A stretch of DNA of 64,000 nucleotides from NCBI GenBank assembly GCA_964387825.1, contig CAYLWZ010000003.1:2267-66266 (forward strand), written 5' to 3'. This DNA comes from an uncultured Candidatus Saccharibacteria bacterium. Its GTDB lineage: Bacteria; Patescibacteriota; Minisyncoccia; Minisyncoccales; GWA2-38-27. This document shows positions 8,537-57,577 of this stretch, in pieces. Every line of letters begins with the position of its first letter. Positions within the stretch are counted from its first letter, which is position 1. The notes below the pieces were generated by a model. The model worked only from the letters and a program-made list of their open reading frames with translations. It had not been told where the DNA came from and ran no database searches. A program made the translations under genes and the position numbers.

Positions 8537-8559
8537 AAACCCGGGTGGACACGGGTAAA

Positions 8560-8618
8560 CCCCGTTAGAGATTCTGAGAACAGGGATAAATTAAAGAAAG
8601 AGAGTATCTCTAACAGGG
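8560..8618. terminator. Hairpin repeat family E (ccccgttagagat ... atctctaacaggg) between convergent ruvC and tyrS
   Basis: 12-13-bp stem. Loop start tctgagaacaggga is conserved with the copy at 11790-11848. Confidence 0.55.
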
Positions 8619-9863: not shown

Positions 9864-11798
9864 ATGGCAGAAAGAATTTTTTATCGAAAAATTTATAAAA
9901 AAAAGAAAAGAAAAAAGATATTTATCCGAATTCTTATTTTTTTCAGCGTTTGCCTGTCGTTTTTTATTTTCTTCCCGCTGTCTGTATTTTTTTATTACGC
10001 CAAAGACCTTCCCCGGCCAGAGGATTTTAACGAAAGACAGCCCATACAATCAACTAAAATCTACGACCGGAGCGGTAAAGTCCTTCTTTACGAACTCTAT
10101 GGCGAGGAAAAAAGAGAAATTATTCCCTTTGACCAGATACCCGAACACCTAAAAGAGGCGGTAATCGCCACCGAAGACGCTAACTTTTACAGGCATTATG
10201 GAATAGATTTTGACGGAATTATTCGCGCTGTTAAACTTGATTTAAAAATAAGAAAATTAACTTACGGCGGTTCTACTATTTCCCAACAGCTTATCCGTTC
10301 CACTTTTCTAAGCACGGAAAAAACTGTGAAAAGAAAAATAAGAGAAATTATTTTAACTTTAGAATTAGAAAGACGCTATTCAAAAGAGCAGATTTTAGGA
10401 TGGTATTTAAACCAGGTTCCTTTTGGCCCCAACATTTACGGAGTTGAAACCGCATCAAAGACCTATTTTAATAAATCGGCTAAAGACATCTCTATAAGCG
10501 AAGCCGCTGTTCTGGCCGCATTAATTAAAGCTCCCAGTTATTATTCAAACAACGAACATAGGGACGAATTAATAGAGAGAAGAAACTATGTGCTTAAACG
10601 AATGGAACAGGAAGGATTCTTAAACCAAGAAGAATCTGAAAAAGCGGAAAAAGAAAAATTAATTCTTGCCGAAAATTTACAGTCAATTAAAGCGCCACAT
10701 TTCATTCTTTATATTGAAGAATATCTTTTCAAAGAATACGGCAAAGATTTTTTAGAACAAGGAGGATTTAAAATCTATACTTCTTTGAACTGGGACCTTC
10801 AGCAAATAGCGGAAAAAACCGTCAAAGAAGGAGCGGAAAGAAATAAAATGTATAATGCCTATAACGCCGCTTTAGTTGCGATTAATCCAAAAACCGGCGA
10901 AATCTTGGCTATGGTCGGTTCAAAGGACTGGTACGCTTCAGAATCGGAAGGATGCAATGAAAAAACAGGGAAATGCAAGTTTGACCCAAAAGTTAATGTT
11001 GTTACCTATAGAATAGGGCGACAACCCGGCTCTTCCTTTAAACCCTTTGTTTACGCCACCGCTTTCCAAAATGGATATGATGATAAATATATTGTTATTG
11101 ATGAAAAAACTAATTTTGGAATCTGGGGCGGGAAACCTTATGTTCCTGGAAACTATGACGGTAGATTCAGAGGACCGGTAACCTTAAGGCAGGCACTGGC
11201 TCAATCCTTAAACGTTCCTTCTGTTAAAGTATTGGTTTATCTGGCCGGTATATCAAAAAGCATAGAAAACGCTAAAAAATTCGGAATTACCACTTTAAGC
11301 AAACCCGATTCTTTTTACGGCCCTTCAATTGTTCTGGGAGGAGGAGAGGTTAGATTGCTTGATATGGTTTCTGCTTATAGCGTATTCCCAAACGAAGGAT
11401 TAAAAATTCCCCCCGTTTCTATATTAAAAATTGAGGACTCCAAAGGAAATATTATTGAAGAATCAAAAATAAATCCTAAAAGGGTCTTGGAAAAAGAACC
11501 AGCCCGGTTAATTAATGACATTCTTTCCGACAACAAAGCCCGAACGCCAATGTTTGGTAGCCATTCGCCTCTTTATTTTGAAAATTACGAGGTAGCCGCT
11601 AAAACAGGGACAACTGATAGTTTTCGCGACGCTTGGACTATTGGATACACGCCTTCCCTGACAGTAGGGGTCTGGGCGGGAAACAACGACAACAGTCCGA
11701 TGCGAGAATATCCGGCAGTAACTATAGCCGGGCATCTCTGGAAAATTTTTATGCTAAAAGCTCTCCCGAAATTTCCAAAAGAAAATTTACCCCGTTAG
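9864..11798 (+). CDS. Class A penicillin-binding protein (glycosyltransferase GT51 + transpeptidase)
   Basis: N-terminal TM helix. GT51 motifs EDANFYRHYGID and GGSTISQQL. Transpeptidase SSFKP (SxxK) and KTGTT. Confidence 0.9.
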   Translation: MAERIFYRKIYKKKKRKKIFIRILIFFSVCLSFFIFFPLSVFFYYAKDLPRPEDFNERQPIQSTKIYDRSGKVLLYELYGEEKREIIPFDQIPEHLKEAVIATEDANFYRHYGIDFDGIIRAVKLDLKIRKLTYGGSTISQQLIRSTFLSTEKTVKRKIREIILTLELERRYSKEQILGWYLNQVPFGPNIYGVETASKTYFNKSAKDISISEAAVLAALIKAPSYYSNNEHRDELIERRNYVLKRMEQEGFLNQEESEKAEKEKLILAENLQSIKAPHFILYIEEYLFKEYGKDFLEQGGFKIYTSLNWDLQQIAEKTVKEGAERNKMYNAYNAALVAINPKTGEILAMVGSKDWYASESEGCNEKTGKCKFDPKVNVVTYRIGRQPGSSFKPFVYATAFQNGYDDKYIVIDEKTNFGIWGGKPYVPGNYDGRFRGPVTLRQALAQSLNVPSVKVLVYLAGISKSIENAKKFGITTLSKPDSFYGPSIVLGGGEVRLLDMVSAYSVFPNEGLKIPPVSILKIEDSKGNIIEESKINPKRVLEKEPARLINDILSDNKARTPMFGSHSPLYFENYEVAAKTGTTDSFRDAWTIGYTPSLTVGVWAGNNDNSPMREYPAVTIAGHLWKIFMLKALPKFPKENLPR

Positions 11799-11848
11799 AG
11801 ATTCTGGGGACAGGAAGAAAAGATAAAAAAAGCAAATCTCTAACGGGG
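11790..11848. terminator. Hairpin repeat family E, second copy, overlapping the PBP stop codon
   Basis: ccccgttagagattctggggacagga...atctctaacgggg. The stop codon TAG of the PBP gene lies inside the left arm. Confidence 0.55.
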
Positions 11849-31303: not shown

Positions 31304-33631
31304 TTAAAATTCATTAGAGCCGCAACTATAAACTCCTCCGATATCTATATGGGCATAAGGGAGCGTGTCTAAAACATAAGCCCCGGGCGAACATTCTTTG
31401 GCTGCTTCTATTATCTTTTTTAAATAATTTTTTTGGAAATCCGAAGAAACGTCAAATTCCAGGGCGTAAGATTTATGGTCGTAACGGCAATAAGTTCCTC
31501 CGTAATGGGCGGAAACTTGTTCTTGGCGATAGTTTATCTCGTAGGGATATGAACACCCTTCCTGTTCTTCGTGTCCTGCTTCCCAGTCGCAGGTCCCTTG
31601 ATAGAGTTTTTTGTCAGAAATAGAAGCGATTTTTCCTATAATTTCATCATCTTCTAATCCTTCTTGTTGCTGGGTTTTGTCTAAATTTGCCCGCATACAA
31701 GAAAGGAGTTGCTTTAAAGGTTCAGAGGCGTCTTCATATTGATTATAGTATTTTACGTCATAACTACAAAGCCATCCTTTTGGGCAGTTGTCTTCCGATG
31801 GCAAAGGTTGGAATTCTTCGGCCGGGACAATATAAGAAGGCGGTTTTTCGGTCGGAGGAAGAATCTCTCCTGTTTCTTCGGCAAGAGAACAGCAGTAAAA
31901 GTTTCTGGGATGGCAGGAATTGATAATTTGATTATCAGACCCGTAATTTCCCTTAACGTCTTCACAGGACAGCAAAGCCCAATCAGGGTTATCAATATCA
32001 GAACTATGGCATAATCCGGCCGATACGCTGAGATTATTTAAATTGTAGGGGTTTTCTTTATCGTTCAAGTAGAAAGAAACCATGGACAAAGTTTGTTTTA
32101 TTTCTTTGATTGCGTCAAAAATTTTATCCTCGGTTTTTTTTATTTCTTTTGATTTTTTCTCAATGTCATCTGTCGGGCAGGCGTCTCCATTGCAACTGCC
32201 AATTACCTGAGTGCATCTTGTCAGGCAGCTGGGGACGCAAATAGTGCAAGGAATTGGCACGCAGCACATAAAACATAGGTTGGGGACACAATTGCAAGAA
32301 ATATTACAGTTCTTTTTATTGCATTGTGAGACCAGTTCGGTCATTTCCTGTATTTCTTTTGTTTCTTCCTCTATTAGAAGAAAAACCCTATTTAAATTGA
32401 CAATATTAATAATTGCTAATTCTCGGAGATTATCTAATATTTCCCCTATTGGCAATTCAACGGGGCAATTGATTTTTTCAATTCCGCTTAGTTGTTCGGG
32501 AATTTCTTGGGGAGTTAATTCTTCAGAGCGAACATCTATTTTTTCCGGAAAATAGGGATAGTCGTAAACAGTTCCTCCGCTTGAGCAATAGAAAGTAAGA
32601 GGGTCTCCTCGGGAGGGCCAGTAACTGGAAATTTTAGTTATCTGATTTCCCGTTTGTTCAAAATCTTTTTGCGTGGATAGATAGTCATTAAGAGTTTTCA
32701 TATCTTTGTTTTCGTTTTGACAGGCAATAACTCTCCCTTCCACTATTTGAAACTTTCTAAGGCCTTCTCTTAAAATATCTTTTTGTTCTTTGATTTTTTT
32801 TTGGTAATCTAAAAAAGTTTTTATTTTTTCTCCGTTTATTTCCAAAATCTTATTTATTTTTGCTCTCGGGGAATCTTCTTCTACGCTATTGCCTTGGTCT
32901 TTCTGGCAAACATCGCCTACGCAGGCAACGGGCAAGCCGGTCGCCGGCTTAGTGCATAAAGGGGTAAGATTTCCGCAGTGGCATTCATCGGTTAAGGTTC
33001 CTAAGTATTTATTTAGGCCAGAAATTCGGTTGAAAGTGTTGTCTGTCAATTCAGAATCGTCTACTTGTTCCTCTTTTTCAAGAAAATTTTGGAAATCCGT
33101 AATCACTTGTTTAAAATTGTTGATTTTTGTTTCTCCCCAAAGTCCCTCTTTCGCCGCTTGCCCCAAAGGAAGTTCTTCCATAATCAAGGAAGGACTTTCT
33201 ATTGTCAGGGGCGTTGATGTCTCTGCCTCTCCCGGAATGATTGCGTTTAAAGGAGGGAGATTGAAAGTCAATAATCCGGGATTAATAATATGTAATATTA
33301 TGTAAGAAGAAAGCAAAATAACTAATCCTATCGTTCCCCCGAAAATTTCTTCCCTTGCTTCTTTCATTTTAGCAGGGTTGCCAGTTGAGATTAAATAAAG
33401 AACGCCTCCCCATATTAAAACGGCAAGGGCGATGACGCCGGAAATCATAATAGCAAAATTAAAAACATATTTCAGGTATTCGGGCAGAGTAGTATCGCTT
33501 CCCAGCGTCTGTCCGAAAATTTCCGGATAATTGATTTCTAACTGGGATGCTTTAATGAAAGAAGCAAGAAAGAGAAGAAAGGAGAAAACAAAGAGAAAGC
33601 CCAAGAATTTTTTTTTACTTTTCCACAACAT
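31304..33631 (-). CDS. Giant T4SS-pilin-like domain protein with extremely Cys-rich central region
   Basis: N-terminal LPEYLKYVFNFAIMISGVIALAVLIWGGVLYLISTGNPAKMKEAREEIFGGTIGLVILLSSYIILHIINP is a paralogue of the 27181 gene N-terminus. Central CNKKNCNISCNCVPNLCFMCCVPIPCTICVPSCLTRCTQVIGSCNGDACP. Confidence 0.55.
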   Translation of the reverse strand: MLWKSKKKFLGFLFVFSFLLFLASFIKASQLEINYPEIFGQTLGSDTTLPEYLKYVFNFAIMISGVIALAVLIWGGVLYLISTGNPAKMKEAREEIFGGTIGLVILLSSYIILHIINPGLLTFNLPPLNAIIPGEAETSTPLTIESPSLIMEELPLGQAAKEGLWGETKINNFKQVITDFQNFLEKEEQVDDSELTDNTFNRISGLNKYLGTLTDECHCGNLTPLCTKPATGLPVACVGDVCQKDQGNSVEEDSPRAKINKILEINGEKIKTFLDYQKKIKEQKDILREGLRKFQIVEGRVIACQNENKDMKTLNDYLSTQKDFEQTGNQITKISSYWPSRGDPLTFYCSSGGTVYDYPYFPEKIDVRSEELTPQEIPEQLSGIEKINCPVELPIGEILDNLRELAIINIVNLNRVFLLIEEETKEIQEMTELVSQCNKKNCNISCNCVPNLCFMCCVPIPCTICVPSCLTRCTQVIGSCNGDACPTDDIEKKSKEIKKTEDKIFDAIKEIKQTLSMVSFYLNDKENPYNLNNLSVSAGLCHSSDIDNPDWALLSCEDVKGNYGSDNQIINSCHPRNFYCCSLAEETGEILPPTEKPPSYIVPAEEFQPLPSEDNCPKGWLCSYDVKYYNQYEDASEPLKQLLSCMRANLDKTQQQEGLEDDEIIGKIASISDKKLYQGTCDWEAGHEEQEGCSYPYEINYRQEQVSAHYGGTYCRYDHKSYALEFDVSSDFQKNYLKKIIEAAKECSPGAYVLDTLPYAHIDIGGVYSCGSNEF

Positions 33632-33635
33632 TAAA

Positions 33636-34520
33636 TTATTTTAACACTTTGGCCAACTTAATCCAGTCCTGAATAGTTAATGTTTCGGCTCTTTGGGATG
33701 GCTGGATGTTATTTTTTATCAACAGGGAGTTAATCTTTTTTTTGTTTAATTTTAATTCATTTGACAAATTACTGGCAAGTTGTTTTCTGGGATAGGAAAA
33801 ACCGGCTCTGACAATCCTGAAAAATTTATCGCGAACCTGCCCGCATTGGCTATAGCGTTGCAGGCGGGAGCGAGGCGAAACAGGGATACGAAGCTGACGG
33901 GCTTGCCCGCCATGCTTCCCGCTAAAAGCGGGATGTAGGCGGGGGACTATTTTTATTATAGCCGAATCAATCTTTGGTTGAGGCCAAAAAGATTTTTTTG
34001 AGATGTAACCAAGAATTTTTGGTTTACTGTAAGATTGAACAGCGATAGCCAGAAAGTTTGTTTTTGGAGGCCGGGCGCATATTTTTTGGGCGACCTCCTT
34101 TTGGATTATTAAAATCATTTCTTTCGGCGGTTTTTTGCTTTCTAAAAATTTTCTTATTACCGGAGTAGCGATATAAAAAGGCAGATTAGCGATGATCTTG
34201 TAACTTGTAGCTTGTAACTTATAACGCAATATGTCTTCGTTGATAATTTCAATATTAGGAAGCCCTTTTAATATTTTCTTAAGAATTTCGCACATCTTTC
34301 GGTCTTTTTCTATTGCAATTACTTTCCTTACTTTCTCGGCTATTTCTTTTGTTAGGGAGCCAAGACCCGGACCGATTTCTAAGACAGTGTCTTTTTTTTG
34401 GAGAGCGGCTGCCTTGATGACTTTTTTGACAACTTTTTTGTCAATTAGAAAAGTTTGTCCCAGCCCTTTTGACGGCAGAATATGATATTCTTTTAATTTT
34501 CTTTTTAAAGAATAAAGCAT
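33636..34520 (-). CDS. rsmA: 16S rRNA (adenine1518/1519-N6)-dimethyltransferase RsmA/KsgA, carrying two in-frame repeat insertions
   Basis: GQTFLIDKKVV, SAM-binding VLEIGPGLGSLT, IIANLPFYIATPVI, C-terminal FSYPRKQL. ORF remains intact through a GC-rich insert (33831-33946) and a heptamer array (34197-34224). Confidence 0.88.
   Translation of the reverse strand: MLYSLKRKLKEYHILPSKGLGQTFLIDKKVVKKVIKAAALQKKDTVLEIGPGLGSLTKEIAEKVRKVIAIEKDRKMCEILKKILKGLPNIEIINEDILRYKLQATSYKIIANLPFYIATPVIRKFLESKKPPKEMILIIQKEVAQKICARPPKTNFLAIAVQSYSKPKILGYISKKSFWPQPKIDSAIIKIVPRLHPAFSGKHGGQARQLRIPVSPRSRLQRYSQCGQVRDKFFRIVRAGFSYPRKQLASNLSNELKLNKKKINSLLIKNNIQPSQRAETLTIQDWIKLAKVLK
33831..33946. repeat. GC-rich ~115-bp insertion inside rsmA, kept in frame
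   Basis: Encodes HPAFSGKHGGQARQLRIPVSPRSRLQRYSQCGQVR. Shares acctgcccgcattg..agcgttgcaggcggg with 55462-55498 and cccgctaaaagcgg with 1361-1374. Confidence 0.7.
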
Positions 34521-38823: not shown

Positions 38824-38895
38824 GGAAAAATAGGGTCAGCTCTGTTTTTTCTTAGAAAAAACAGTTGGAGAAAATAGAGCTGACCCTATTTTTCC
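38824..38895. repeat. Palindromic repeat family C (ggaaaaatagggtcagctct ... agagctgaccctatttttcc)
   Basis: 20-bp perfect arms with an inner hairpin ctgtttttt-ctta-gaaaaaacag. Abuts the stop codon of the 38895 gene. The left half recurs at 41395-41425. Confidence 0.75.
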
Positions 38896-41394: not shown

Positions 41395-41504
41395 AAAAAT
41401 AGGGTCAGCTCTGTTTTTTCTTAGCTAAAAATGGTGTCAGATCTATTTTTTCTAGCGAGGCAATAATCAAACCAGTAAGGAAAAATAGACCTGACACCAT
41501 TTTT
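41395..41504. repeat. Composite repeat: half-copy of family C plus complete hairpin of family D (aaaaatggtgtcagatctattttt ... aaaaatagacctgacaccattttt)
   Basis: 41395-41425 is identical to the left arm plus inner half-hairpin of 38824. 24-bp arms with one mismatch at 41427-41450 / 41481-41504. Confidence 0.7.
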
Positions 41505-45345: not shown

Positions 45346-45494
45346 GAAAAAATAAAGTGGCCGATAAAATTAAAAGTAGCCACTTTTTATTTTTGTCAGC
45401 AGTTGCTTTACAAGAGCGTAATGTGGGATAATCGCTTAGTTGAATTCAAATTAAGCGATTTTTTGTTGTTTTTTGGGATTAGGGATAACTTTTA
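45346..45494 (+). repeat. Copy A of a ~125-150-nt non-coding module (promoter-like element overlapping a terminator-like hairpin)
   Basis: Shares tttttatttttgtcagcagttgctttacaagagcgtaatgtgggataatcgctt.gttg..ttcaaattaagcgattttttgttgttttttg with 48429-48556. TTGCTT-18 nt-GATAAT with TG extension. Hairpin aatcgctta/taagcgatt plus T-run. Confidence 0.7.
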
Positions 45495-45583
45495 TTTGAC
45501 AAAATTTCTAAAACATATTAAAAAGAAAATAGATATTTGACAATTAAATAATCCTAAAAAAGAAAAGAAAGGAGGTGAGAGAA

Positions 45584-47778: not shown

Positions 47779-47870
47779 TCTTTATCTGAAAAAAATAAAA
47801 AAATTATTAAGTTATGAACTATTATATATTACTTTATTTTTTGGTAGGCGTATTGTAAAAAGTAGGAAAA

Positions 47871-47924
47871 GTAGGGACGTTTCCGACTTTTCTCACTTAA
47901 TTTAAAAGTCGAAAACGTCCCTAC
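47871..47924. repeat. Palindromic repeat family B (gtagggacgtttccgactttt ... aaaagtcgaaaacgtccctac)
   Basis: 21-bp arms with one mismatch. Flanked by further (a)gtagg/cctac(t) units. Second copy at 54022-54084. Confidence 0.7.
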
Positions 47925-48037
47925 TTTCTCTACTTTCCTATTTTCCGTCCCTACTTTTCTGCCGGTATATTTGCAATGCCAGTGATTGTAGAATTCTATA
48001 AGGAAGGAGTCCAGAATGTATCTGGCATTATGTAAAG

Positions 48038-48428: not shown

Positions 48429-48556
48429 GAAAAATAAAGTGGTCACTTTTTATTTTTGTCAGCAGTTGCTTTACAAGAGCGTAATGTGGGATAATCGCTT
48501 GGTTGGGTTCAAATTAAGCGATTTTTTGTTGTTTTTTGAGCTTGTGGATAACTTTT
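48429..48556 (+). repeat. Copy B of the non-coding promoter/hairpin module
   Basis: See 45346-45494. The listed ORF 48364..48594 is just this repeat translated. Confidence 0.7.
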
Positions 48557-48640
48557 GTCGGAAAACACTTGACAAATGTTTTAGAGTAGAGTAACCTATG
48601 AACAGAGCGTGGAAAAGTAAAAAATAGATAACGCCAAAAT

Positions 48641-48745
48641 ATGGACAATAAAATTTTACTAATTATTGCCATAATAACGATACCAATATCATTAACCTTT
48701 TTGGTTTGGTTAATCAGCAGATATTACCGGAGGAAACAAAAGTAG
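48641..48745 (+). CDS. Possible 34-aa single-TM peptide
   Basis: MDNKILLIIAIITIPISLTFLVWLISRYYRRKQK: hydrophobic helix plus basic tail. Weak ribosome-binding site. Its 3' two-thirds lie inside the 155-bp direct repeat. Confidence 0.3.
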   Translation: MDNKILLIIAIITIPISLTFLVWLISRYYRRKQK

Positions 48746-48840
48746 TTTGTCAGAAATTGGCAAGTCGAATAAAGAGGATTGTATCTAATCTTTTTTCTTC
48801 GGTTCGGCAATTAAAAAAACCGAATGGTTCTTTAAAAATA
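48686..48840 (+). repeat. Left copy of ~155-bp direct repeat flanking the GNAT/CYTH cassette
   Basis: Near-identical to 50399-50551 (by eye, one substitution and one 1-nt indel). Contains hairpin ttcggtt..aaccgaa. Confidence 0.8.
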
Positions 48841-48909
48841 AAAAACTTTTAAGTATAAATGGTGTCGGATCTGAATTTTTTTAAAGACGTTGAATTATAA
48901 GATAATAAA

Positions 48910-50389: not shown

Positions 50390-50398
50390 TTATTACAG

Positions 50399-50551
50399 AT
50401 ATCATTAACCTTTTTGGTTTGGTTAATCAGCAGATATTACCGGAGAAAACAAAAGTAGTTTGTCAGAAATTGGCAAGTCGAATAAAGAGGATTGTATCTA
50501 ATCTTTTTTCTTCGGTTCGGCAATTAAAAAACCGAATGGTTCTTTAAAAAT
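50399..50551 (+). repeat. Right copy of ~155-bp direct repeat
   Basis: See 48686-48840. The duplicated peptide tail is in frame with the CYTH stop codon. Confidence 0.8.
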
Positions 50552-50589
50552 AATAAATAAACTTTTAATTTAATAAGGGGGTGAGAAAG

Positions 50590-53969: not shown

Positions 53970-54021
53970 TTTGACATAAAGTTAATTTTTGAATAAAATA
54001 AAAATAGAAAAAGTAGAAAAA

Positions 54022-54084
54022 GTAGGGACGTTTCCGACTTTTAAATTAAAAAGAGGAAGCGGAAAAAGTCAAAAACGTCCTTAC
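54022..54084. repeat. Palindromic repeat family B, second copy, between the kinase and response-regulator genes
   Basis: gtagggacgtttccgactttt ... aaaagtcaaaaacgtccttac. Confidence 0.65.
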
Positions 54085-54593: not shown

Positions 54594-54914
54594 ATGAAAC
54601 AAGAGGTATTAGAAAAGCGAATAAGAGAAAATTTAGAAATTCAGGCCAAAAAAATGGCTTTATTGTTATATGATTCAACTATGCCTGATGATATCAAAGA
54701 GGCCTGGATTGCTTTATTGCCCTGGATGTCCTTAGGACAGATGGATAAGTTGCTTAATATCCTGGAAGCGAAATATTTAGACGGACAGACCAAAGATATT
54801 GATGAGAAATATAAAGATAAACTGAAGGAAGTGGCGGAGAAATTTGAAAAAGAGCAATACGAGAATGATAAAAAATTATTAGAGCAAATCAATAAATTAA
54901 AAAAGATATTATGA
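54594..54914 (+). CDS. Hypothetical coiled-coil protein
   Basis: ATGA overlap with the following large gene; no motif recognised. Confidence 0.4.
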   Translation: MKQEVLEKRIRENLEIQAKKMALLLYDSTMPDDIKEAWIALLPWMSLGQMDKLLNILEAKYLDGQTKDIDEKYKDKLKEVAEKFEKEQYENDKKLLEQINKLKKIL

Positions 54915-57577
54915 AAGGAGCAAGCGCTGAAAAATTTGAGAACCAAGAAGAGGAGCCGAAAGAAGAGTTGGAAACGGAAAAAGAGCAAGAAATAGAAGAA
55001 ACTCCTAAATTGGGTTTCGCGAAATTAGGTGTAAACGAAGAATTATTGGAGAGAACCGCTAAGGGGCTTGACGAAGAACAGGTAAACGTCATAGAAAAGA
55101 AATTATTAAAATGGCAGGATAGAAAAAAGGAGGGAAGTTTGAGAAAGGGAGAGGAGAATATTGAAGAGTTGATGGGAGAATGGAAAACAATACAAGAACG
55201 GAAGAGAGAAAGAGAGCGGTTAAAAAAGGGAGGGATGGCTTGGCAGATAGGTAAAACTATGTTGAGCACGGTCGGTTCTATTGCCGGTGTCAAAAGTTTT
55301 TACGATGTCCCGGAATATTTTAGAGAAAGGTTTAATGTCCGGGGAATGTTCGGGAAAGGCAAAGGAGTTGAGGGCTCTATAGAAGAATTGTTGTCTGCTT
55401 CGCAGCAAGCGCGGGAGGGATTTGGAGAGCCGGAAGAAAAAACAGAACATAATGAACCGAGACCTGCCCGCATTGCTACGCAAAGCGTTGCAGGCGGGCC
55501 TGAAACAAGGAAAGCCATTGAAGATTTAAACAAAAGATTAAAATTGACCAAAGAAGGCAGTCAAAAGGGTTCAGGGCAAAGAAAGTTAATCGCTAAGTTG
55601 CTGATGGAAAACAGGCAAAAAGAAAAATGGAGCAAAGAGGAAAGAAGCGGAGAAATAACCAAGATATTGGACGAATATACTACTACTAAAATAACCGGTG
55701 TTCAAGCTGCCCGCGAGGCGTTGAATAGTTTTTTCGTCGCTTCCGGCGCTTACGGCTTACGGGGCATTTCTTACGGCCTGATGGATGGGGTGGAACGGGC
55801 GTCAAGATTAAAGAAAGAGGCAAAAAAGCAGGGGGAAAAGGCGCGCTTATTTAGAGATGTTATCGCCGGAGGGGTCAAAGACACTTTTTTAGGGGCTTTT
55901 GGAAAAGGCAAAGAAAAAACAAAAAAAGAAAAGGCCTTGTCAGTCGTTAAATCTTGGGGCAGGATAGTCAGATATTTGGGCATAGCGGCTATGGTTGAGT
56001 GGCATCCGGAAACAGCCGGCAATGCGATTGATAAAGCCATTGACGCTTTTGAAGGCAAGGTTAGTTTTGGCGATGTGGCTGAGAATTTTAAGGGCAATAT
56101 TGAACGGTTGGCCGGATTTTACGGCGGGTTGATTAAAAAAGGACTGGATTGGACCGGCGTGTCAAAAGTATGGACAGGCGAAGGAGAAGAAGGATTGGGG
56201 GGAGAAGTGATAACAATGCCAATAACAAAAGAGGGAGTAATTCCCGAGGCGCCGGAAGCAGAAATGCCTCCTGAGGCGCCGGCAGCGGAGCCGTTTCAGA
56301 TAGCCGAAAACGTGAGTGTTAAGAAAGGAGATTCAATTTGGACCGTTGCCGAAAAATATCTAAGAGGCAATAAAACTTACGAGGAATTAAGCAAAGTCGG
56401 CGATAAAGATGCGGCCGAGGCGTTAGAGACATATAATATTGACAGAGTTAAGGATACTATTTTGGCCCATCCTCAGAATTATGGCTTGCCGGAGGACATT
56501 GACGTTGATAAGTTAACCGTTGGACAGCTTAAGGAAATTAACTGGGAAAAAGCGTTTAGCAACACTTATCCGGAAGGCAAGGGCCTGACCGTCGGACTGC
56601 CCAAAGAGAATATTGAAAATATTGTTAAAAACAATGAAACTTTAAGGACGTTTTTCCAGGAGCATCCAGACGCTCCCCGGACTGGCGAGAATTATGAAGC
56701 GATAATAAAGGGAAGCGGTATGACCGAGGCAGGAGAAGAGGTATCCTTTGAAGAAGCAAAAAAGTTAGAAGAAATAACCAATTTAACAAGAACCTATCAG
56801 GCTAAGGGAATTCTCTTAGGGCGCGGATTAACGCTGGGCGAAACAGAGGTCTGGCTGAATAAAGACCCAAGTCTGGAGAAAATATTAAGCGAAATACCCA
56901 AAGACGAAAATAAGGCCTGGGAAATATGGAGAGGAGATGAAACACCTGACTTGCCTCATCATGGGATGTATAGCAGCAGAGAATTTGGCCGGCAATTAGA
57001 CCTGGCTCAATGGCTTCGGGAGCAGAACCCGACTGGAGCGGAAATGAAAATGGGCATTAAAGAATATTTGGAGAAAGTTGAGCCAACGGCCGGGGTGAAT
57101 AGAGTAGGGGTTGCGGAAGTTCTTCCTTCCTCGGGAAAAATAGAGGGAGGGTTGTCCAAAGAAGGATTGCCGTTAGACCAAGAAGCAGCCAAGTCTTCAT
57201 TGGCAGAACAAATAAACGCATTAAGAGAAATGAAAGCCGAGACCATAGCAGCGGAGAATTCTGGTTTGACTTCAAGCGAATATGAAGCAATCAAAGATGT
57301 AAAAGTTGGTAAATTACTTAAGGAGATTTCCTCAAAAGATAAGGCCTGGGAAATATGGAGAGGGGATAAAATACCCGACTTGCCTCATTATGGGACGTAT
57401 GGCAGCAGAGAATTTGGCCGGCAGATTAAATTAGCCGAATATCTTCGCAAAGCATTACCCTTGATTGACAAAAGCCCTGAAGCCAAGGGCATGGCCATTA
57501 AAGATATTTTAGGAACAATTATTAGGCCAGAAGGCGAGGCGGGAAAAGGAGTTATTCATAACATTGATTTGCCGTAA
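54911..57577 (+). CDS. Large hypothetical protein with internal ~40-aa duplication and a LysM-like segment
   Basis: KAWEIWRGDETPDLPHHGMYSSREFGRQLDLAQWLRE and KAWEIWRGDKIPDLPHYGTYGSREFGRQIKLAEYLRK. VSVKKGDSIWTVAEKYL. Carries the GC-rich motif at 55462-55498 in frame (PRPARIATQSVAGGP). Confidence 0.5.
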   Translation: MKGASAEKFENQEEEPKEELETEKEQEIEETPKLGFAKLGVNEELLERTAKGLDEEQVNVIEKKLLKWQDRKKEGSLRKGEENIEELMGEWKTIQERKRERERLKKGGMAWQIGKTMLSTVGSIAGVKSFYDVPEYFRERFNVRGMFGKGKGVEGSIEELLSASQQAREGFGEPEEKTEHNEPRPARIATQSVAGGPETRKAIEDLNKRLKLTKEGSQKGSGQRKLIAKLLMENRQKEKWSKEERSGEITKILDEYTTTKITGVQAAREALNSFFVASGAYGLRGISYGLMDGVERASRLKKEAKKQGEKARLFRDVIAGGVKDTFLGAFGKGKEKTKKEKALSVVKSWGRIVRYLGIAAMVEWHPETAGNAIDKAIDAFEGKVSFGDVAENFKGNIERLAGFYGGLIKKGLDWTGVSKVWTGEGEEGLGGEVITMPITKEGVIPEAPEAEMPPEAPAAEPFQIAENVSVKKGDSIWTVAEKYLRGNKTYEELSKVGDKDAAEALETYNIDRVKDTILAHPQNYGLPEDIDVDKLTVGQLKEINWEKAFSNTYPEGKGLTVGLPKENIENIVKNNETLRTFFQEHPDAPRTGENYEAIIKGSGMTEAGEEVSFEEAKKLEEITNLTRTYQAKGILLGRGLTLGETEVWLNKDPSLEKILSEIPKDENKAWEIWRGDETPDLPHHGMYSSREFGRQLDLAQWLREQNPTGAEMKMGIKEYLEKVEPTAGVNRVGVAEVLPSSGKIEGGLSKEGLPLDQEAAKSSLAEQINALREMKAETIAAENSGLTSSEYEAIKDVKVGKLLKEISSKDKAWEIWRGDKIPDLPHYGTYGSREFGRQIKLAEYLRKALPLIDKSPEAKGMAIKDILGTIIRPEGEAGKGVIHNIDLP

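Follow-up and report, generated by a model that had tools for sequence, protein, structure and literature searches.

A 36-nucleotide repeat with two alternative hairpins in rsmA of a Saccharibacteria bacterium and its association with a small GIY-YIG gene

The DNA considered here is a stretch of 64,000 nucleotides (hereafter the window) from contig CAYLWZ010000003.1 of an uncultured Candidatus Saccharibacteria bacterium. Its reverse strand carries, at 33636-34520, the gene rsmA (ksgA), which encodes the 16S rRNA dimethyladenosine transferase, a protein of 294 aa, and which is not strictly essential in E. coli. The product matches the Pfam family RrnaAD (E = 1.4e-52) and the solved structure of KsgA from B. 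subtilis (6ifs, E = 1.3e-45). Inside the gene lies an island of 121 nt (33828-33948) with 63% GC, against 35.8% GC in the whole window; it is the longest island of the window among those with at least 62% GC, and across it the protein reads ...IVPRLHPAFSGKHGGQARQLRIPVSPRSRLQRYSQCGQVRDKFF.... Six samples, among them 3300031651, 3300031379 and SRR8556701, each yielded an independent assembly with a 100% identical 885-nt rsmA gene; an assembly artefact is thereby excluded, and the island is fixed in the population. A preliminary description of this DNA had interpreted the island as a single GC-rich element of about 115 bp, one of a family of miniature, coding-compatible elements in this lineage, comparable to palindromic repeats that insert in genes and keep the frame. 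Its core idea of in-frame repeat DNA is upheld by the close orthologues of RsmA, which lack the segment. With high confidence, the island is attributed to in-frame copies of a dispersed mobile repeat, whose unit has 36 nt and which extends far beyond this lineage.

The composition of the island was resolved by comparing the DNA of four rsmA orthologues (L123 to L126) codon by codon with the gene of the window. A core, CGT CAG CTT CGT ATC CCT GTT TCG (RQLRIPVS), is homologous to the RQFRVPVS or RQFRILVL of the relatives, and it is bordered by extra DNA, which amounts to 42 nt towards the N terminus (unit B) and to net 33 nt towards the C terminus (unit A). Judging from this comparison, the island is not one element; it is made of two independent in-frame insertions and 33 nt of older linker. 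Unit A (33836-33868, forward strand) is a decayed family member of 33 nt, CCTGCCCGCATTGGCTATAGCGTTGCAGGCGGG, in which both 9-nt arms are those of the canonical 36-mer and the apex is shortened. It is read by rsmA as its reverse complement, (P)RSRLQRYSQCGQ(V), corresponding to residues of about 216-229. Unit B (33902-33943, forward strand) is a decayed member of 42 nt, CTTGCCCGCCATGCTTCCCGCTAAAAGCGGGATGTAGGCGGG, present as a 42-nt insertion relative to the orthologue DNA, with boundaries ambiguous by about 3 nt; it is likewise read as the reverse complement, RLHPAFSGKHGGQA, residues of about 194-207. The 5' arm and the 3' end of unit B match members of a subfamily, CCTGCCCGCCATGCTTCGCAAGGCGTAGCAGGCGGG (L200) and ...CATAGCGATGTAGGC (L067), described by the pattern CCTGCCCGC[AC]ATGCTTCGC...GATG[CT]AGGCGGG. 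At its apex, where the subfamily has GCATAGC or GCAAGGC, unit B contains a local 15-nt hairpin, and its predicted fold is a hairpin of 16 bp. The older segment between the two units (33869-33901, reverse strand) encodes ARQLRIPVSPR and aligns with orthologues P0030, P0002 and P0042 at both the codon and the protein level.

At the protein level, the extra residues fall between the two domains of the enzyme. In the alignment to 6ifs, query residue 199 corresponds to residue 216 and query residue 232 to residue 223, leaving 32 unaligned residues where B. subtilis KsgA has 6, and the linker insert coincides exactly with this gap. Relative to the closest orthologues from the Candidate Phyla Radiation (CPR), the excess amounts to 25 residues. 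The linker, counted from the last methyltransferase strand to the FF(K/R)IV helix of the C-terminal domain, mostly has 11-16 residues in the 120 closest RsmA homologues, and the closest of them (65% identity, 260 aa) has no insert. An AlphaFold2 model built with 50 homologues is confident overall (mean predicted local distance difference test score, pLDDT, of 85.8), with residues 199-224, which come after strand 186-193 and before the first C-terminal-domain helix, below 50. The low scores indicate a disordered loop between the two domains.

The same linker carries other small insertions in relatives. P0042 (L123) and P0083 (L124) contain other, unrelated perfect small hairpins in frame at this place, for example GAAGAGAAC-GAA-GTTCTCTTC; the linker can therefore be regarded as a hotspot that tolerates such DNA. 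The clade-wide RQFRVPVSRQFRE linker of RsmA is a direct repeat of CGCGTCAATTTCGCG. Directly downstream of rsmA, on the same strand (31304-33631), lies the gene of a 775-aa cysteine-rich protein with a T4SS_pilin Pfam match, and the order LysM-peptidase, rsmA, pilin-like gene is kept in relatives.

A third family member is found in another gene of the window. The motif CCTGCCCGCATTG(N)AGCGTTGCAGGCGGG occurs at 33836-33868 and again at 55463-55498, in both cases on the forward strand (2 matches, with 0.00 expected from 100 shuffles of the window). The second site is an intact canonical copy of 36 nt, exact in sequence and in frame within an open reading frame (ORF) for an 888-aa hypothetical protein (54911-57577, forward strand). 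Since the motif has the same orientation at both sites, it appears as its reverse complement in the rsmA frame and directly, as PARIATQSVAGG, in that of the 888-aa ORF; the in-frame recurrence on the opposite gene strand had already been recognised in the preliminary description. Homologues of the 888-aa protein are hypothetical CPR proteins with no Pfam domain. Among the 23 compared, PARIATQSVAGG occurs only in the 888-aa protein and is absent from the other 22, and the site is a variable spacer. The same ORF contains a 112-nt internal repeat (83%; 56907-57018 and 57336-57447) encoding a KAWEIWRGD..PDLPH.G.Y.SREFGRQ module. In total, the window holds exactly three family members, namely unit A, unit B and the copy in the 888-aa ORF, all of them genic and all in frame.

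These comparisons bear on the simplest alternative, in which the island would be an ancestral loop specific to the lineage, a GC-rich stretch due to chance or the product of a chimeric assembly. The length of the RsmA linker does vary in the clade, and P0042, P0083, P0035 and P0059 carry unrelated extra residues there. However, both halves of the island correspond to a repeat that recurs at more than 100 unrelated loci, the number of chance matches expected in the window is the 0.00 given above, and the six assemblies agree. An ancestral segment would also be expected in relatives, a point raised in the preliminary description, and neither the close RsmA orthologues nor the 22 homologues of the 888-aa protein carry the respective insert. 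This alternative is extremely unlikely.

The 15-nt hairpin at the apex of unit B, CCCGCTAAAAGCGGG (33918-33932), must be treated separately. Its recurrence as an exact reverse complement at 1219-1233, where it is part of a longer hairpin, ACCAGCCCCGCTTTTAGCGGGACTGGT, that follows a TAA stop codon by a few bases, agrees with what had been described earlier, whereas the intergenic site at 1361-1375 proves to be a 14/15 copy. Three matches in the window, one of them with one mismatch, compare with 0.08 expected, and no match was found in 0.83 Mb of other CPR loci. The hairpin was consequently rejected as a widespread family and, contrary to its earlier assignment to the element family, is a separate motif local to this genome.

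The reading frame of the repeat is informative as to whether the inserts reach the protein. Five of the six frames of the canonical 36-mer are open, and the sixth, CGC CTG CAA CGC TTT GCG TAG, ends in a stop codon. It is this sixth frame that rsmA uses, yet units A and B, as read from their sequence, both lack the TAG stop. In unit A the stop was lost through the shortened apex, and related 39-nt variants, such as that of L093, read RLQRFRRSQCGQ and are open; the subfamily of unit B reads RLHRYAKHCGQ, also without a stop. Among the 115 copies listed, 38 lie in long ORFs, half of these (19 of 38) in the PARIATQSVAGG frame. The lengths of 33, 42 and 36 nt, together with the missing canonical stop in the rsmA frame, argue that the inserts are translated rather than removed, and we infer such translation for the inserts of rsmA. 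The opposite possibility is a segment removed before the protein is made, as in a mini-intron or intervening sequence, which would make the frame irrelevant and leave RsmA at its normal length. CPR bacteria are known for intervening sequences in their rRNA genes, and the island folds better than shuffled sequences on either strand (z about -2.5 to -2.7). On the other hand, units of 33-42 nt are much smaller than group I or II introns, and they compare with a catalytic RNA core of more than 200 nt for a self-splicing intron or a splicing domain of more than 130 aa for an intein. Rfam searches of the window (gathering threshold) and of the island and four loci combining the repeat with the GIY-YIG gene discussed below (E-value threshold) returned no family for these sequences, only tRNAs and sub-threshold noise. 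Furthermore, all three copies of the window keep the frame, the canonical stop is gone in exactly the frame of rsmA, and the bias of 19 of 38 copies towards one tolerable peptide frame would be pointless if the element were spliced out. Removal at the RNA level is very unlikely.

The canonical family member is the 36-mer CCTGCCCGCATTGCTACGCAAAGCGTTGCAGGCGGG. Its distribution was assessed by scanning the pattern TGCCCGCATTG-N(2-16)-GTTGCAGGCGG over one genome per species, 596 Gb in total. The scan returned at least 116 loci, with about 1 match expected by chance (2 x 5.96e11 x 15 / 4^22); about 109 of these are true copies, and about seven odd-gap matches in GC-rich genomes were set aside. The same 11-nt loop is present in 65 of the 120 matches listed, while the flanks are unrelated. 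Among the matches listed, the hosts include Saccharibacteria, Microgenomates (including Gottesman-, Roizman-, Woese- and Levybacteria) and Parcubacteria (including Moran-, Nealson-, Wolfe-, Portnoy- and Paceibacteria). The non-CPR hosts are contigs labelled Verrucomicrobiota, Lentisphaeria or Desulfobacteraceae, which have 50-69% GC and each contain several copies. Some labels are suspect: a contig labelled 'archaeon' is identical to a Blackburnbacteria contig and its label looks wrong (suspect labels L106 vs L089 and L059 vs L041), as do those of loci labelled Gammaproteobacteria, Pseudomonadales and Bdellovibrionales, which have 35-49% GC and CPR-like tRNA and GIY-YIG contexts. As judged from sequence, the family is nearly unchanged across many Patescibacteria phyla and some non-CPR contigs, and it is not confined to the one lineage that the preliminary description considered.

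Copies are sparse and dispersed. Under the strict pattern the density is roughly a few per Mb; only 4 of the 116 loci listed have two copies, irregularly spaced by 99 to 4561 nt, and copies are otherwise solitary, with no regular array of the CRISPR kind. The 36-mer occurs in 2 of 2.9 million IMG/VR contigs and was not found in the INPHARED phage or PLSDB plasmid collections, and carriage by phages or plasmids was rejected on these counts. At three pairs of orthologous sites (L039/L044, L018/L114 and L020/L118), the hairpin is unchanged and the flanks have diverged. A literature search found no description of this 36-nt repeat.

The manner of insertion is best seen where copies are nested. In L058, L066 and L067, exact 36-nt insertions are found at CTACG^CAAAGC, within another copy. 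In the nested case examined in one metagenome-assembled genome (MAG), a whole inverted 36-mer lies exactly between CTACG and CAAAGC; no base is duplicated or missing, and the placement is ambiguous by ±1 nt. In the flanks of the copies listed, no target-site duplication above chance was found for k = 1-8, three tandem-repeat contexts excepted. The preference for flanking sequence is weak: T is rare at position -1, and there is no conserved target tetranucleotide. A general preference for hairpin loops was rejected, since flank complementarity is not higher than in controls (Mann-Whitney p = 0.56 and 0.91); only an enriched tail is seen, with 10% of sites at or below -12 kcal/mol, compared with 4-6% in controls. 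A second CPR hairpin family, GTCAT[TC]CCCGCGNAGGCGGG[AG]AT[CG], is present in many copies in L085 and also in L009 and L099; in L046 (7662-7697) and L075 (1818-1853), the 36-mer sits at the tetraloop centre of this family.

The 36-mer is able to form two mutually exclusive hairpins of 12 bp each. Hairpin A (positions 1-32) has the pairs 1-5/28-32, 7-9/23-25 and 11-14/18-21, a TAC loop and the 3' tail CGGG. Hairpin B (positions 5-36) has the pairs 5-9/32-36, 12-14/28-30 and 16-19/23-26, an AAA loop and the 5' tail CCTG. Covariation was evaluated in 43 distinct ungapped 36-mers against 500 shuffles. For hairpin A, 25 cells are changed on both sides and the score is 0.203 (shuffled mean 0.088); for hairpin B, 11 cells are changed on both sides and the score is 0.112 (shuffled mean 0.058). 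In both cases, 0 of the 500 shuffles reach the observed score, and slid registers collapse for A and B alike. Pair 3:30 of hairpin A, for example, occurs as UA (34 sequences), AU (5) and CG (4) and is never unpaired; pairs 11:21 and 12:20 likewise vary on both sides. The 39-nt variants contain three coordinated one-base insertions, for example TTGCC TAC GGCAA AGCC GTT, by which both apical helices are lengthened together. Moreover, in 75% of 92 distinct variants, both folds are kept at least 2 kcal/mol better than in inner-shuffled controls. Covariation supports both hairpins.

Such constraint might suggest that the 36-mer is chiefly a host-useful signal under selection, such as a protein site, an mRNA-stabilising hairpin, a recombination site or an uptake signal, with genic copies being incidental. 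The near invariance of the sequence across phyla, its identity at orthologous sites despite diverged flanks and the compensatory changes that keep both folds all favour this explanation. However, copies are missing from the orthologous positions of relatives, are nested in one another and interrupt coding regions and tRNA fragments (described below), and their density is far below that of known uptake signals. The right flanks of the copies, among the matches listed, have no T-run, so they do not resemble intrinsic terminators, and both orientations occur beside the GIY-YIG gene. A signal serving chiefly the host is quite unlikely.

The gene environment of the repeat was examined by clustering the ORFs of the at least 116 hairpin loci. 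Among the loci listed, a single recurrent neighbour family emerged, a GIY-YIG protein of about 80-95 aa found at 12 loci (PF01541, E = 1e-16; resembling the UPF0213 structure 1zg2, E = 1.6e-6). In 4 of these loci, all of one subfamily, fewer than 50 nt separate the hairpin from the start codon downstream of it. A search from the protein side then covered at least 80 metagenome loci of this subfamily, with 189 kb of sequence and 85 hairpins. Among the metagenome loci listed, the hairpin ends less than 100 nt ahead of the GIY-YIG start codon in 54 of 85 cases, mostly 7-30 nt from it; 19 hairpins follow the stop codon at a distance of up to about 200 nt, and 12 are elsewhere in the 189 kb. A hairpin or an expanded-apex derivative is found upstream of the gene in 57 of the 77 GIY-YIG loci listed. 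Both orientations of the hairpin occur beside the gene, according to edit-distance calls.

These loci have a common architecture that involves a tRNA gene: a tRNA 5' fragment, the hairpin, the GIY-YIG ORF and an intact tRNA follow one another. In most of the 30 GIY-YIG loci inspected, the hairpin splits the tRNA 5' fragment, which comprises the acceptor strand and the D arm, and the split points vary between cassettes (7^8, 9^10, 12^13 and 20^21). The intact tRNA begins a few bases after the GIY-YIG ORF, and its first 18 nt match the split fragment in 26 of the 42 loci tested. The tRNAs at these cassettes include those for Gln, Ile, Lys, Val, Asn and Glu; in the genome set, a tRNA lies within 300 nt of 20 of the 116 copies listed. 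The idea that the hairpin interrupts tRNA genes was rejected, since deleting it in silico and running ARAGORN restored no tRNA across the site; the tRNA-like flanks are partial 5' fragments upstream of intact tRNAs. Seven further loci (L041, L122, L042, L080, L022, L084 and L110) have hairpin-split tRNA 5' fragments 28-81 nt upstream of an intact tRNA with no GIY-YIG gene in between, and these may be scars of cassette loss.

Taken together, these observations are consistent with the following account. Two old and partly decayed copies of the 36-nt repeat (33 and 42 nt) inserted on either side of an older stretch of 8 residues in the RsmA linker, where they would be translated and add 25 residues, as a disordered surface loop that the enzyme tolerates. 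The third, intact copy occupies, in frame, the variable spacer of the 888-aa ORF. The nature of these three copies is well supported. The family inserts as a precise unit with no target duplication, also into the apex of other copies, and its sequence is constrained to the two alternative 12-bp hairpins. Movement would proceed through a folded single-strand or cruciform DNA intermediate, with an enzyme supplied in trans. The most likely partner would be the stand-alone GIY-YIG nuclease of about 80 aa, whose gene is preceded by a duplicated tRNA 5' fragment and followed by the intact tRNA, and which may cut or mobilise the hairpin. The two folds might present two unit boundaries, and a hairpin in the leftover tRNA fragment might mark or disarm the cleavage site or break a direct repeat that would otherwise delete the cassette. 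The whole account, with worn in-frame hairpin copies in rsmA, movement through a folded intermediate and the GIY-YIG protein acting in trans, is given a probability of roughly 55%. The single step in which the GIY-YIG protein is the mobilising or maintaining enzyme, which draws on gene positions, is put forward tentatively, at somewhat less than an even chance.

A different enzyme would be required if the repeats were REP-like or IS200/IS605-like single-stranded DNA elements (REP, repetitive extragenic palindrome) moved, for example, by a Y1/HUH transposase of the RAYT type (REP-associated tyrosine transposase). The link to the GIY-YIG gene would then be secondary: the hairpin would accumulate or be selected in the tRNA fragment, where it could break the direct repeat and stop cassette loss, destroy a cleavage site or stabilise the mRNA. 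The lack of target duplication, the folded imperfect palindrome and the overlapping hairpins with 4-nt tails, which resemble compressed left and right ends of IS200/IS605, speak for such a mechanism, and the varying split points in the tRNA fragments fit repeated secondary insertion. RAYT-like Y1 genes with YHVYNRG and LMPNHFHLL motifs are present in 4 of the 116 loci listed (L017 2030-2729, L035 187-835, L090 5913-6606 and L096 1738-2353). Nevertheless, these genes lie 0.65 to several kb from the 36-mer, there is neither a conserved GTAG/CGTC end tag nor a conserved target tetranucleotide, and the positional link to the GIY-YIG gene is far stronger, with 73 of 85 hairpins lying at most about 100 nt upstream of the ORF or about 200 nt downstream of it. 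The Y1 genes of L017 and L035 are, in addition, bracketed by short hairpins of their own, for example CCTCAAAAGGTTAAACCTTTT, which are unrelated to the 36-mer; these two may be REPtrons in their own right. Movement by another enzyme of this kind is unlikely, though less so than the alternatives considered above.

The account preferred here, in which the GIY-YIG protein acts on the hairpin, must also be set beside the known classes of small repeats. Rickettsia palindromic elements (RPEs), reportedly described by Ogata and colleagues in 2000 and 2002 as RPE-1 to RPE-8, are palindromic repeats that lie in frame in coding genes, are translated into surface peptides, occur also between genes and near RNA genes, and encode no transposase. 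The copies in rsmA and the 888-aa ORF are similar to them as in-frame insertions into genes that are absent from orthologues. RPEs, however, measure about 100-150 bp and occur in Rickettsia only, whereas the units here have 33-42 nt (canonically 36) and occur in many CPR phyla and others, a distinction drawn by size and host; the two-hairpin design and the clustering around a GIY-YIG gene are features of the 36-mer family. REP elements and REPtrons, in which a REP is combined with a RAYT Y1 transposase, are palindromes tagged by GTAG/CGTC (PMC3733652). Like REPs, the 36-mer is a GC-rich imperfect palindrome within the range of 20-40 nt; its copies are dispersed, low to moderate in number and free of target duplications, and a minority of them flank a candidate partner gene while most are solitary. 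It differs in that its ends are CC... and ...GGG, with GTAG only in the reverse-strand apex, and in that none of the Y1-like genes in the four loci listed is adjacent to it. About a third of its copies lie in ORFs, its neighbour is a GIY-YIG gene and not a Y1 gene, and it crosses phyla whereas REPs are species-specific.

IS200/IS605 elements and their palindrome-associated miniature derivatives share with the 36-mer the absence of target duplication and of terminal inverted repeats. A reliance on hairpins folded in single-stranded DNA may also be common to both, and the two overlapping hairpins of the 36-mer, each with a tail of 4 nt, might play the part of the left and right ends. In the loci listed, however, the 36-mer has no linked TnpA/TnpB or Y1 gene and no conserved target tetranucleotide, and its unit is 36 nt and not hundreds. 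Transposable elements of the miniature inverted-repeat type (MITEs), such as the Coxiella QMITEs, which add in-frame peptides (PMC5896051), and the Correia elements of Neisseria, are likewise non-autonomous small genic repeats that sometimes extend proteins. They possess terminal inverted repeats and target-site duplications and measure 50-500 bp; the 36-mer has no duplication and is too small. In summary, the 36-nt repeat belongs with the small palindromic mobile repeats but lacks defining features of RPEs, REPs, MITEs and IS200/IS605.

The partner gene, in turn, recalls free-standing homing endonuclease genes such as Seg of phage T4 or those of the I-TevI type, in which a small GIY-YIG gene lies beside or within a conserved gene. 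In the present cassettes the conserved gene is a tRNA, which stays intact thanks to a duplicated piece of the target. The partner has the GIY-YIG catalytic domain (PF01541, 1zg2), its cassette order is as given above, and a conserved target fits the distribution across distant hosts; beyond the domain, the resemblance to a homing cassette is one of architecture. Known homing endonucleases have a DNA-binding domain besides the catalytic core. To our knowledge, none is accompanied by a dispersed miniature hairpin repeat, and there is a substantial chance that the hairpin and the GIY-YIG/tRNA cassette represent a new kind of mobile system. In its most explicit form, the 36-nt repeat and the gene of about 80 aa would constitute a previously undescribed system in which the cassette takes up residence in tRNA genes and restores the tRNA from a copy of the 5' part that it brings along; since tRNA sequences are conserved, it could cross phyla. 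The hairpin, shed or captured by the cassette, would be pasted with no target duplication at breaks in other parts of the genome, including those in coding regions such as rsmA. The two folds could present two ends for cleavage and joining, and could also provide a protein-binding scaffold beside target-derived (tRNA) sequence. This full scheme is possible but rather doubtful.

Several points weigh against the account in which a GIY-YIG nuclease acts in trans on a mobile hairpin. No pair of filled and empty sites was found at the DNA level for any copy, and the insertion in rsmA is deduced from orthologues of at most 65% identity. The independent covariation events are fewer than the cells counted, because the sequences are related by descent, and the phylum range of the family is approximate, because several MAG labels are unreliable. 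The window itself contains three hairpins and no GIY-YIG gene of the subfamily. Only 4 of about 115 dispersed copies listed adjoin such a gene, and the association could therefore reflect a local role, stabilising or regulating the cassette, and not mobilisation. The GIY-YIG protein consists of the catalytic core only, with no obvious DNA-binding domain, and we know of no GIY-YIG nuclease that catalyses transposition. A GIY-YIG candidate in the window was also considered and rejected as a weak false match inside a 377-aa ORF with no GIY-YIG features.

The window contains several other repeats. At 47859-47936 and 54010-54049, a palindrome of 33 nt with 91% complementarity and an inverted partner of 40 nt (95%), AAAGTAGAAAAAGTAGGGACGTTTCCGACTTTTAAATTAA, enclose about 6 kb; they might delimit a mobile unit or form a pair of regulatory sites. 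Two direct repeats, one of 164 nt (91%; 48681-48844 and 50394-50557) and one of 148 nt (86%; 45373-45520 and 48436-48583), are probably paralogous gene segments. A palindrome with 28-nt arms, GGAAAAATAGGGTCAGCTCTGTTTTTTC, at 38824-38895 has a 94% copy 2.6 kb away at 41395-41430. Finally, two 60-nt hairpins, ACCCCGTTAGAGATTCTG...TCTCTAACGGGG, at 8559-8618 and 11789-11848 share 78% identity and lie 3.2 kb apart.

The genomes of CPR bacteria are tiny and streamlined, and few mobile elements are believed to reside in them. The anatomy of the hairpin family, its scope and its likely partner enzyme are new beyond the core idea of the preliminary description. For genome annotation, the inserts inflate protein lengths and can pass for domain features. 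If the account holds, the repeat would be a new marker of gene flow among uncultivated bacteria and a source of lineage-specific protein loops, which would explain peptides such as PARIATQSVAGG in those hypothetical proteins that contain the repeat. It would also point to a possible new enzyme-substrate pair, consisting of a minimal GIY-YIG nuclease and a two-state DNA hairpin.

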